From assembly GCA_049325595.1 (NCBI GenBank), contig JBMOLF010000015.1, positions 74,479-138,478 on the forward strand: a stretch of 64,000 nt of DNA, given 5' to 3'. The position numbers and the translations under genes are program-made. Positions 61,166 to 61,960 of this stretch are shown in pieces. The notes under the pieces are model-generated. The model was not told the DNA's origin, searched no databases, and saw only the letters and a program-made list of their open reading frames with translations. Origin of the DNA: Candidatus Babelota bacterium (lineage in GTDB: Bacteria; Babelota; Babeliae; Babelales; Vermiphilaceae). Position 1 is the stretch's first letter, and each line of letters starts with the position of its first letter.

Positions 61166-61960
61166 AAAAACAGGAAGCAGGAGGAAGAAGAGGAAAGCGA
61201 GGGGGAAAGGATTAAAAATAGGGGAAAGAAAGGATGGGGGAGAAAATAAGGGAGGAATAAATAAAAGAGATAGGTTAGGTGTAGAGGTATAAGTAATAAG
61301 AATAATAGACACCTGTATATAAGCACATGGCATGACTTAGCTAAAAGATAAATAAATATGATGTATGATGTAGGAATTAAAACTATATAGCATTAAAACA
61401 AAGTAAAAACTTACTTATATAAAAAGTATACAAGAGAATAAGATATGAGAGATAAGAGAAAGAGAATATGCATGATATATAGACTTAGAATATATAGGGT
61501 GAAGATAAATAGAAATCTAAAGATTAAGAAATAAGAGCAAAGTCAAAAACTAAGACTAAGAATACTCGCTAAAGACATAACTAGTACTAAGATTAAACAA
61601 AGAAGAAGAGTAATAAACAATAAGCAAAACTAACCGATAAGAAATAAACAATAATAAAGCAAACTAATAAGATAACCAAGAAGAACAAGAAGCTCTATAA
61701 ATTTATGGAGCAAAAGAAGAACTTAAGCAAGAAGGCAAATACCAATAAGAAATCTACTGATTATTATTAGAAGAGTATAACTAGCTAATACTAAAAAAAG
61801 ACGTAGTTAGAAAAGAAGAAGGGTGATAAGAATAAGAAGAAGAAGAAAAGGAATATATCTTATTAAAATACCGTTAAGAGGAAGATCAAAAACTCCACAT
61901 CGCATGAAAAGAACAGTAAGACAATATCTTCACACGAACCAATCAAACGTTGCGCAATAA
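61166..61960 (+). repeat. ~800-bp low-complexity polypurine (A/G-rich, nearly C-free) noncoding tract
   Basis: Hand counts: 61201-61260 has 54/60 purines and no C; 61261-61320 and 61561-61620 each have 41/60 purines. No ORF over 70 aa in any frame. Degenerate AAGA/ATAAG/AGAAG words throughout. Confidence 0.8.

Follow-up and report, generated by a model that had tools for sequence, protein, structure and literature searches.

Organization of the region between the flippase-like gene and dnaK

The 64,000-nucleotide stretch analysed here (the window), part of contig JBMOLF010000015.1 of a Candidatus Babelota bacterium, carries between a gene coding a flippase-like membrane protein and dnaK a long noncoding tract whose purines and pyrimidines are very unequally distributed between the two strands. 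Both genes lie on the minus strand, as a preliminary description of this DNA had stated. The flippase-like gene (62088–63401), coding a multi-pass protein of 437 residues, is the upstream co-oriented neighbour and dnaK (58831–60714; 627 residues, PF00012) the downstream one. Read along the minus strand, the elements between them are arranged in the order flippase-derived islands, spacer of 50–860 nucleotides (nt) depending on the genome, hairpin of ~70 nt and dnaK promoter, as delimited by sequence comparison. In the window the spacer is the tract (61165–61853), which is pyrimidine-rich and G-poor on the minus strand, untranslated and predicted to be unstructured, while the hairpin occupies 61092–61169 (core 61097–61164). 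Comparison of about 45 loci indicates that this flippase–hairpin–dnaK noncoding unit is conserved in Dependentiae (TM6), a phylum with hardly any cultured members whose representatives live as intracellular parasites of protists. The loci were collected by look-ups and by a scan of species-representative genomes, close relatives being added later, and are designated by L numbers, the window being L001.

Properties of the tract

The interval 61166–61960, originally described as extremely asymmetric, contains 407 A, 157 G, 153 T and 78 C on the plus strand (70.9% purine). The best stretch of 795 nt is 61131–61925 with 71.3% purine, ~5.6 standard deviations (SD) away from the mean of the 64 kb (50.5%, SD 3.7%), and the three most purine-skewed 200-nt windows of the 64 kb are all found inside the tract (77.5, 72.5 and 72.0%, the next one reaching 65.5%). 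A maximal-scoring-segment scan yielded a single segment of 726 nt, 61128–61853, with 72% pyrimidine on the minus strand and a score of 186, the runner-up segments across the window scoring 27 (pyrimidine-rich) and 30 (purine-rich). These values support the original statement that no comparable tract occurs elsewhere in the 64 kb. The base counts given for single lines were exact (no C and 54/60 purines in 61201–61260, 41/60 purines in two more lines), whereas the near absence of C holds for ~61199–61276 only and not for the whole tract, in which C amounts to 9.8%. The interval also stops short at the dnaK-proximal end: its first position, 61166, falls inside the 5' edge of the hairpin, the most informative part of the region.

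The most extreme composition is that of a G-free, C-rich core (61199–61276, minus strand) located 5' of the hairpin, which resembles a rut (Rho utilization) site. It has 30 C and no G in 78 nt, the highest C/G ratio among all 78-nt windows of the 64 kb, and its C residues are never more than 12 nt apart. For the 150-nt piece overlapping it a folding energy of -3.5 kcal/mol is predicted, the weakest fold among 426 windows, and the other 150-nt pieces of the tract likewise rank with the least stable ones of the 64 kb. The hairpin begins ~30 nt downstream of the core. Read with its flanking genes the tract would give a long U/C-rich RNA, as previously proposed, and the relatives indicate that the gene strand is the functional one.

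The tract was correctly described as noncoding. Each of the six frames has 7–31 stops, the longest open stretch is 75 codons, and the only open reading frames (ORFs) code 41–70 residues of low complexity with no Pfam or NCBIfam match. Reading TGA as a sense codon would delete at most seven stops in any frame and leaves all six closed. A coding gene or a recent pseudogene was rejected on the basis of these closed frames, of the failure of the tract to align among close relatives and of the lack of a conserved peptide. A tblastn search with 29 flippases detected relics exclusively in the flanks of the tract (island E1) and none inside it, boxes E2 and E3 being recognised separately. A tandem repeat or satellite was rejected as well: there is no head-to-tail array, and Tandem Repeats Finder reported only small patches of 2–6 copies with scores of at most 42, in line with the earlier view that the tract is not a clean tandem repeat. 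A repeat search showed short degenerate word repeats only, and the imperfect ~31-nt duplication noticed before at 61617–61680 is present. Among 15 tracts, TTCTT, TCTTA and CTTAT exceed their frequency in dinucleotide-preserving shuffles about two-fold. TTCTT occurs 135 times against 58 expected and is found in 15/15 tracts. This excess is compatible both with slippage and with a binding word.

A mobile element was discarded, no convincing terminal repeats, inverted or direct, having been detected at the locus, and so was a replication origin, terminus or dif site, because the GC skew is positive across the whole 64-kb window without any switch. TTATGCGAC bears only a loose resemblance to a XerC arm, and this idea was dropped. 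The possibility of an assembly artefact, raised at the outset, was also addressed. The tract is real sequence and not a chimera since a contig assembled from a separate run (SRR7663064) carries it with 96.2% identity, the two differing also by minor indels of the slippage type. It is 100% identical in the Logan assembly of SRR32167788, whose reads possibly have the same source as the window.

The conserved hairpin

Every pyrimidine tract that was read borders, on its dnaK side, on the motif ACGNAGUC-AAG-(GC-rich stem and loop)-GNNA-GACGGAGUG. It corresponds to the RNA AC-(GNA)-GUC-AAG-(stem of ~11 bp with a C-rich loop)-GNNA-GAC-(GGA)-GU-G, whose apical loop carries CCCCCA or CCCAC. A covariance model built from a 5-sequence seed matched once per locus, invariably on the gene strand, and a second model was also applied. 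The minus-strand hairpin of the window scores 30.7 bits with model R1 and 62.4 bits with model R2. The R2 model finds a single match per locus, on the gene strand, in 32/48 sources. Full-length matches are all on the gene strand and only two weak matches were obtained on the reverse strand (E = 0.12 and 0.98). The strand specificity expected of a structured RNA motif is thus present, although it is modest evidence since this strand had served for building the model.

In the 20-sequence realignment, which was fitted to the hairpin model, 91.8% of the paired cells are standard pairs and compensatory changes occur in 11/16 pairs. None of 500 shuffles reaches the observed values and alignments with slid partners pair to 31–44%, so that the compensatory changes of a structured RNA stand above these controls. 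The paired positions comprise 280 Watson-Crick, 11 G.U, 3 A.C and 19 A.G or G.A cells; this count supersedes an earlier one on hand-aligned arms (5 G.U and 9 A.C). The prevalence of G.U over A.C together with the purine-rich internal loops favours the gene strand as the RNA strand. Individual minimum-free-energy folds reproduce the architecture and the stems of independent metagenome hairpins pair as well. RNAalifold applied to the raw MAFFT alignment of the motif recovered only the 5 outer pairs, the stem being out of register.

At gathering threshold, the sole Rfam 15 match in the 64-kb window was a tRNA and the hairpin was unmatched. Permissive searches gave nothing relevant with E up to 10 in 60650–62150 or with E up to 1 in seven relatives. 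ARAGORN detected no tmRNA (transfer-messenger RNA) and no further tRNA in the window, and a literature search on noncoding RNAs of Dependentiae retrieved nothing relevant. The hairpin is apparently a new, undescribed covarying RNA motif.

Two further hairpins are predicted 3' of the motif on the minus strand, a GC-rich one, CGCGCGCCGCGCG, at ~61075–61090 and a small one, CCTTATAAATAAGG, at 61043–61056. The counterpart of this region (61043–61090) in several relatives pairs with the GGAGUG of the motif or makes a terminator. In L006, L009, L025 and L039 (4/26 loci) a GGAGUG hairpin is followed by a U-run, forming a terminator on the gene strand, while in L011, L020 and L031 a CACUCC downstream of the motif could pair with GGAGUG. 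Intrinsic terminator prediction over 60600–62200 of the window found none on either strand.

Conservation of the unit in Dependentiae

The preliminary description had suggested searching relatives for a syntenic tract, and one was found next to the flippase and dnaK genes in many Dependentiae. Commonly dnaK comes next after the flippase gene, 0.5–3.8 kb further on, and many of these gaps have one 200-nt window with 70–84% pyrimidine on the gene strand. The top pyrimidine-rich segment ends at the 5' edge of the hairpin, or at most ~50 nt from it, in at least 10 loci. Its length is 860 nt in L033, 726 nt in the window, 479 nt in L007, 381+145 nt in L002, 317 nt in L022, 256 nt in L006 and 198 nt in L015. 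Over 27 loci, the 100 nt upstream of the hairpin have on average 66% pyrimidine and 8.8% G, and are at or above the 95th percentile of the background pyrimidine content in 17 of them. The best 78-nt C/G ratio within the 228 nt upstream of the hairpin exceeds 2 in 21/25 loci and belongs to the top 5% of its own locus in 18/25. A horizontal origin from the host, which had been considered for the tract, is unnecessary to account for a tract of the same composition found at the same place across the phylum.

In most loci dnaK lies 285–630 nt downstream of the motif, the gene at this position being another one in L019, L024, L010 and L020. Some genomes have the unit separated from the flippase gene; there too it comes after the stop codon of an ORF with the same orientation. 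Metagenomes were scanned with a pattern for the motif alone, using neither flanking gene as bait. Five true hairpins and four chance matches were obtained; dnaK is found 330–490 nt downstream of all five true hairpins. Where upstream sequence was available, a G-poor pyrimidine-rich tract precedes the hairpin (3/3 cases; one has 79% pyrimidine, 3% G and a C/G ratio of 63), and it is absent from the chance matches. An earlier metagenome pattern, specific for the clade of the window, gave no match.

The spacer before the hairpin consists in some lineages of other low-complexity tandem units, such as four copies of AATAGATCAAATA in L018 and three of CATTCGTCTTGAAC in L006. These alternative spacers are located at ~4480–4583 in L018, ~5780–5884 in L030 and 7560–7650 in L006, and their G content, where measured, is 8% (L018) and 2% (L030). 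Separately, an ORF of ~190–200 codons is found between the hairpin and dnaK in L006 (7986–8561), L032 (4061–4636) and L039 (5844–6446). The first residues of the three products are alike and look hydrophobic. The idea of a degraded grpE, which arose from a 179-residue ORF in the L006 gap, was rejected since its first residues resemble those, hydrophobic in appearance, of the ORFs at this position in L032 and L039 and since it lacks a counterpart in the window, GrpE itself not having been compared directly.

Evolution of the tract

The flanks of the tract can be aligned among genomes whose DnaK proteins are 97% identical, while the tract itself cannot. Its counterpart in the closest relative, L046, is 96.2% identical; the differences are 26 substitutions (21 transitions) and 17 gap columns, which fall in repeated words. 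As a neutral benchmark, third codon positions of the flippase-like genes of the same two genomes are 95% identical, and the flanking modules are identical at 344/345 positions. Since the tract diverges about as much as third positions, next to nearly invariant flanks, and is unalignable in other relatives, its sequence appears to be roughly neutral with composition alone being held. Its length varies about 15-fold (50–860 nt) and, most relatives having a spacer of 50–300 nt, the 700–800 nt seen here represent a lineage-specific expansion. The block that links the tract to the upstream boxes (61854–61931, minus strand) is conserved, with 77/78 positions identical to L046 where neutral sites would give ~95%, and can be partly aligned among L001, L002, L007 and L048.

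The identity between the window and L046 breaks just after the hairpin, at ~61090: flippase-like gene, tract and motif are 96–100% identical, the next 130 nt 78.5%, and dnaK third codon positions 86%. This sharp drop looks like a recombination breakpoint at the motif.

Flippase-derived islands E1–E3

The flippase-like protein of the window is identical to ACOYT8_05240, a hypothetical protein of the NCBI metagenome-assembled genome 'Candidatus Dependentiae bacterium', and has no Pfam or NCBIfam match. It has 53 homologues, which are from Dependentiae/Babeliales wherever a source is named. The label flippase-like is used because one of them has PF01943.

Island E1 (62103–62141, minus strand), or 5' module, is a noncoding relic of the codons K..K.A.LCLPLLGI. 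Its 18-nt core, CGCGCCGTCTTTCCCCTT (62108–62125), is identical in L001, L046, L002, L048 and L007 and is found as a variant in L010, L014 and L033. tblastn aligns the relic with flippase residues ~294–353. The last codons of the window's flippase-like gene enter E1 in a frame other than the ancestral one. Islands E2 and E3 (61935–61980, minus strand) are direct ATTGGTT boxes at 61974–61980 and 61935–61944, 45 nt apart, which are relics of S-I-G-L and V-R-L-V-S codons. The E2–E3 stretch is identical at 55/55 positions between L001 and L046. The window's own flippase-like gene spells VRLVS with other codons (8/11 bases match). A promoter inside the E2/E3 boxes was rejected by eye, as TTGGTT-17-TAATAC fits coding-type genomes only and not the noncoding relics.

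In coding-type genomes E1–E3 are inside the 3' third of the flippase gene and their synonymous sites are unusually fixed: within E2 and E3 GGT is found in 100%, TTG in 87% and CGA in 75% of the sequences, and over the islands the fraction of the top codon is 0.62–1.0, against mostly 0.25–0.55 at other conserved residues with at least four synonymous codons. The flippase 3' thirds examined were those of L019, L024, L025, L039, L006, L032, L008 and L011. In the clade of the window and in L010, L014, L015, L017, L018 and L033 the islands are noncoding yet conserved after the stop codon of a co-oriented ORF. Synonymous sites frozen in some genomes and noncoding relics conserved in others suggest that E1–E3 have a function at the nucleotide level that overlaps coding sequence. 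They offer a natural experiment in overlapping function, the same islands being either coding with frozen synonymous sites or noncoding relics. In an exploratory analysis, E1 was the 39-nt window most complementary to the G-rich hairpin 3' half (61097–61130) within 1.6 kb upstream in 10/19 loci. The two segments may engage in a long-range alternative pairing, which covariation cannot test because both partners are invariant.

The flippase-like proteins of the window and of L002, L007 and L048 are 38–42% identical where DnaK is 97% identical. Either very fast evolution of the gene or its exchange, as is the case of wzx between serotypes, could account for this. Replacement of the flippase by an upstream paralogue was rejected, the paralogues of L023, L038 and L041 being unrelated to the window's flippase.

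A putative landing pad for Rho

The criteria of RhoTermPredict for a rut site are an excess of C over G in 78 nt, regularly spaced C residues (every 11–13 nt), lack of structure and freedom from ribosomes, with a GC-rich pause hairpin, whose loop has 4–8 nt, no more than 150 nt downstream (PMC6407284). The core at 61199–61276 has such a composition (30 C and no G, with gaps of up to 12 nt between C residues), and its weak fold, closed frames and position beyond the flippase stop codon predict that its RNA is unstructured and ribosome-free. Rho-dependent terminators and the unit share an untranslated, unstructured, G-poor RNA of at least 78 nt that follows a stop codon, has more C than G and a C at least every 12 nt, a GC-rich hairpin within the downstream 150 nt and the absence of an intrinsic terminator, a likeness that rests on sequence and predicted folding. 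The locus is a rare case of a bacterial intergenic region in which base composition rather than sequence is conserved, with the anatomy expected of Rho loading sites.

Beyond the hairpin dnaK has a strong promoter of its own, TTGACA-18-TATAAT at 60820–60791 (12/12 consensus match), within a minus-strand region (60762–60858) that is nearly invariant in L001, L002, L007, L045, L046 and L048. This conserved promoter separates the tract from dnaK, so that the tract does not form the leader of its transcript, contrary to the dnaK-leader option of the preliminary description. Promoter prediction on the minus strand found no sigma-70-like site between the flippase stop codon and the hairpin, nor elsewhere before the dnaK promoter.

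The unstructured spacer with more C than G after a stop codon, the GC-rich hairpin, the lack of an intrinsic terminator and the strong, separately regulated promoter just beyond lead us to favour, tentatively and with somewhat less than even confidence, a rut-like landing pad that together with its 3' hairpin ends or gates upstream transcription before dnaK. RNA polymerase leaving the upstream co-oriented gene, here the flippase-like one, would make a G-poor, C/U-rich RNA that is unable to fold and free of ribosomes. This RNA would serve as a single-strand landing pad whose likeliest user is Rho, another single-strand RNA-binding protein being possible. The GC-rich hairpin directly 3' would mark, pause or protect the RNA 3' end, so that upstream transcription would be ended or gated ahead of the promoter of dnaK, presumably with insulation or gating of this gene as the purpose. 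The spacer would need to keep its composition only, its sequence drifting approximately neutrally and its length changing by slippage of UUCUU and CUUAU words. If this model or that of a switch discussed below is true, the locus offers a directly testable way into the question of how reduced genomes insulate or gate the expression of heat-shock genes.

Several observations weigh against the Rho-type landing pad. A rut site needs ~80 nt, and the 700 nt present here, up to ten times the length needed by a Rho-dependent terminator, are unexplained by this function. The C/G ratio of the distal tract is only moderate (median 1.7) and U exceeds C over most of the tract. Upstream of the hairpin C/G is 2 or less in 4/25 loci, and L018, L023 and L009 are among the loci that have A/T-rich repeats there instead. 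The GC-rich hairpin is suitably placed, ~30 nt downstream, but its loop has at least 20 nt, where RhoTermPredict asks for 4–8 nt, and it is a sequence-conserved, covarying motif of ~70 nt rather than a generic small hairpin: its internal loops, ACGNAGUC and GACGGAGUG, are invariant, more conserved than a generic pause hairpin needs. Finally, the conservation of E1–E3 and the complementarity of E1 suggest an RNA more elaborate than a terminator. A literature search on Rho in Dependentiae retrieved nothing relevant, and a tblastn search for rho, with an E. coli Rho query, had no match in ~0.5 Mb of Dependentiae sequence, a sample too small to be informative.

Alternative explanations

The unit could itself be a regulatory RNA, derived from a 3' untranslated region (UTR) or independently transcribed, in which the hairpin would be a protein-binding or stabilising domain and the C/U tract a multivalent platform. 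We consider this rather unlikely. The tract might be a sponge for a pyrimidine-binding protein (cold-shock-domain, S1 or similar) that recognises UUCUU/CUUAU, or an anti-Shine-Dalgarno-like surface (CCUCC, C-rich loop). The invariant internal loops and C-rich apical loop of the hairpin, the over-represented words, the predicted single-strandedness of the tract RNA, the constraint on E1–E3 at the nucleotide level and the occurrence of the unit away from the flippase gene or dnaK in some genomes are all in its favour. It is weakened by the lack of a predicted promoter of its own and of a known partner protein or target, by the nearly neutral drift and 15-fold length variation of the tract, and by the possibility that the enriched words are a mere product of slippage. 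Cold-shock proteins, moreover, prefer U-rich/UCUUU-like sites. 3'-UTR-derived regulatory RNAs exist, and sponge RNAs of the CsrB/RsmZ type repeat GGA in hairpin loops. The unit shares with them its position at an mRNA 3' end, a conserved 3' structure and a short word repeated in a single-stranded context. Unlike in CsrB/RsmZ, the word is UUCUU/CUUAU rather than GGA, lies outside hairpin loops and drifts approximately neutrally, and in this genome the unit has no canonical terminator and no known partner.

A broader proposal combines tract, hairpin and E1–E3 in one undescribed phylum-wide RNA device, part of which lies in coding sequence. By means of the G-free landing pad and of long-range alternative pairings, in which E1 or the downstream CACUCC would compete for the hairpin 3' half, the device would link transcription of the flippase-like gene with the dnaK locus. 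This proposal is speculative and rather unlikely. If true, it would represent a new class of factor-dependent termination/antitermination switch in an obligate intracellular phylum. The large bacterial noncoding RNAs OLE, GOLLD, ROOL and raiA present in Rfam are similarly long, confined to one phylum and provided with a covarying element. The unit differs from them in that only ~70 nt and short islands are conserved around a low-complexity interior, and no Rfam model matches it at E up to 10.

Another option is that the hairpin alone is a cis-acting switch (attenuator, thermosensor or riboswitch-like) that would decide on read-through into dnaK, the tract being merely an unstructured 5' spacer. 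The location of the motif upstream of dnaK, at 285–630 nt in most loci and at 330–490 nt in the five metagenome cases, agrees with this, as does the absence of a predicted intrinsic terminator between the two genes of the window. GGAGUG, the 3' strand of the closing helix, can moreover pair with the 5' end of the motif, with a downstream CACUCC or within a terminator hairpin with U-run. These mutually exclusive pairings are reminiscent of a riboswitch platform, and the distant upstream E1 is complementary to the same hairpin 3' half. However, a consensus promoter proper to dnaK and an inverted repeat resembling an operator lie between the motif and dnaK, the gene downstream is not dnaK in four loci, the U-run terminator is found in only 4/26 loci, and the alternative pairings use invariant sequence beyond the reach of covariation testing. 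Riboswitch and attenuator platforms likewise show the pairing of a closing helix with downstream sequence and a terminator, here present in four lineages, but the unit has a single hairpin with internal loops in place of a multi-helix junction able to form a ligand pocket, a separate downstream promoter and no match to an Rfam riboswitch. A switch of this kind is quite unlikely.

The tract may instead be functionless, a neutral low-complexity DNA that derives from a decayed duplicated flippase 3' end plus 3' UTR and was inflated by slippage. Relics of the flippase carboxyl terminus flank it, the coding strands of membrane proteins are already pyrimidine-rich, its divergence is close to the synonymous rate, transitions, which preserve the purine/pyrimidine class, predominate (21/26), indels fall in repeated words and its length ranges from 50 to 860 nt. 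Neutral DNA should, however, turn strand-symmetric, whereas G-depletion and an excess of C over G before the hairpin recur among tracts that cannot be aligned. The most extreme part (30 C and no G in the window) always adjoins the hairpin, and decayed membrane-protein genes attain ~67–70% pyrimidine, not 80–93%. Absence of function is, like the switch, quite unlikely.

An action of the tract as DNA, through H-DNA (triplex) or R-loop stabilisation near dnaK as suggested in the preliminary description, is very improbable: it has the strand asymmetry shared with H-DNA mirror repeats and 12 of the 60 purine runs of at least 10 nt in the window, including the two longest (20 and 19 nt), but lacks mirror symmetry (no homopurine mirror repeat with arms of at least 8 nt and a spacer of up to 8 nt), has ~29% interruptions, adjoins a hairpin with the signature of RNA (covarying pairs, 11 G.U cells, strand preference), lies at no GC-skew switch that would denote a replication origin or terminus and would give a pyrimidine-rich minus-strand transcript, the class with the least stable RNA:DNA hybrids. 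The tract is more likely an RNA landing pad, for instance for Rho, than a DNA triplex. Should both the Rho and the switch models fail, the hairpin motif would remain worth proposing to Rfam and studying experimentally in strain Noda2021 (AP025250.1), a relative cultured in Vermamoeba whose complete genome carries the unit.

Other features of the dnaK locus and of the window

Upstream of the -35 hexamer of the dnaK promoter there is an inverted repeat, CTTAGTGTAAAAGACTAAG (~60840–60858, minus strand), which in relatives reads GAGTCA..GACTNAG. CTTAGTGTAAAAGACTAAG is followed by AGATTTTTTTAGTA; both are almost invariant, and the arrangement is operator-like and different from the CIRCE (controlling inverted repeat of chaperone expression) element. 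A further conserved box, (A/T)TTATGCGACA, is found at 60956–60964 on the same strand, ~143 nt upstream of the -35 hexamer. The box is shared by divergent genomes with an almost constant spacing (142–145 nt in L001, L002, L007, L015 and L017) and may be recognised by a regulator or act as a second promoter element.

A copy of the terminal 111 nt of dnaK with its stop codon (58831–58941) lies 1.5 kb downstream (57241–57351; 93.7% identity), and a partial further copy is present at 56286–56349 (86%). As with the flippase islands, this duplicated tail is the remnant of a gene 3' end. The Logan contig ends within this repeat.

The positive GC skew throughout the window denotes that the plus strand is probably the leading strand, in which case replication would meet transcription of the flippase-like gene and of dnaK head-on. 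Dispersed repeats of 90–376 nt with 83–94% identity are found at 6813–7188/14241–14616, 6634–6725/12085–12177 and 11507–11716/18558–18766, one of them starting at the 3' end of the sole tRNA of the window, a tRNA-Gln (6565–6638).

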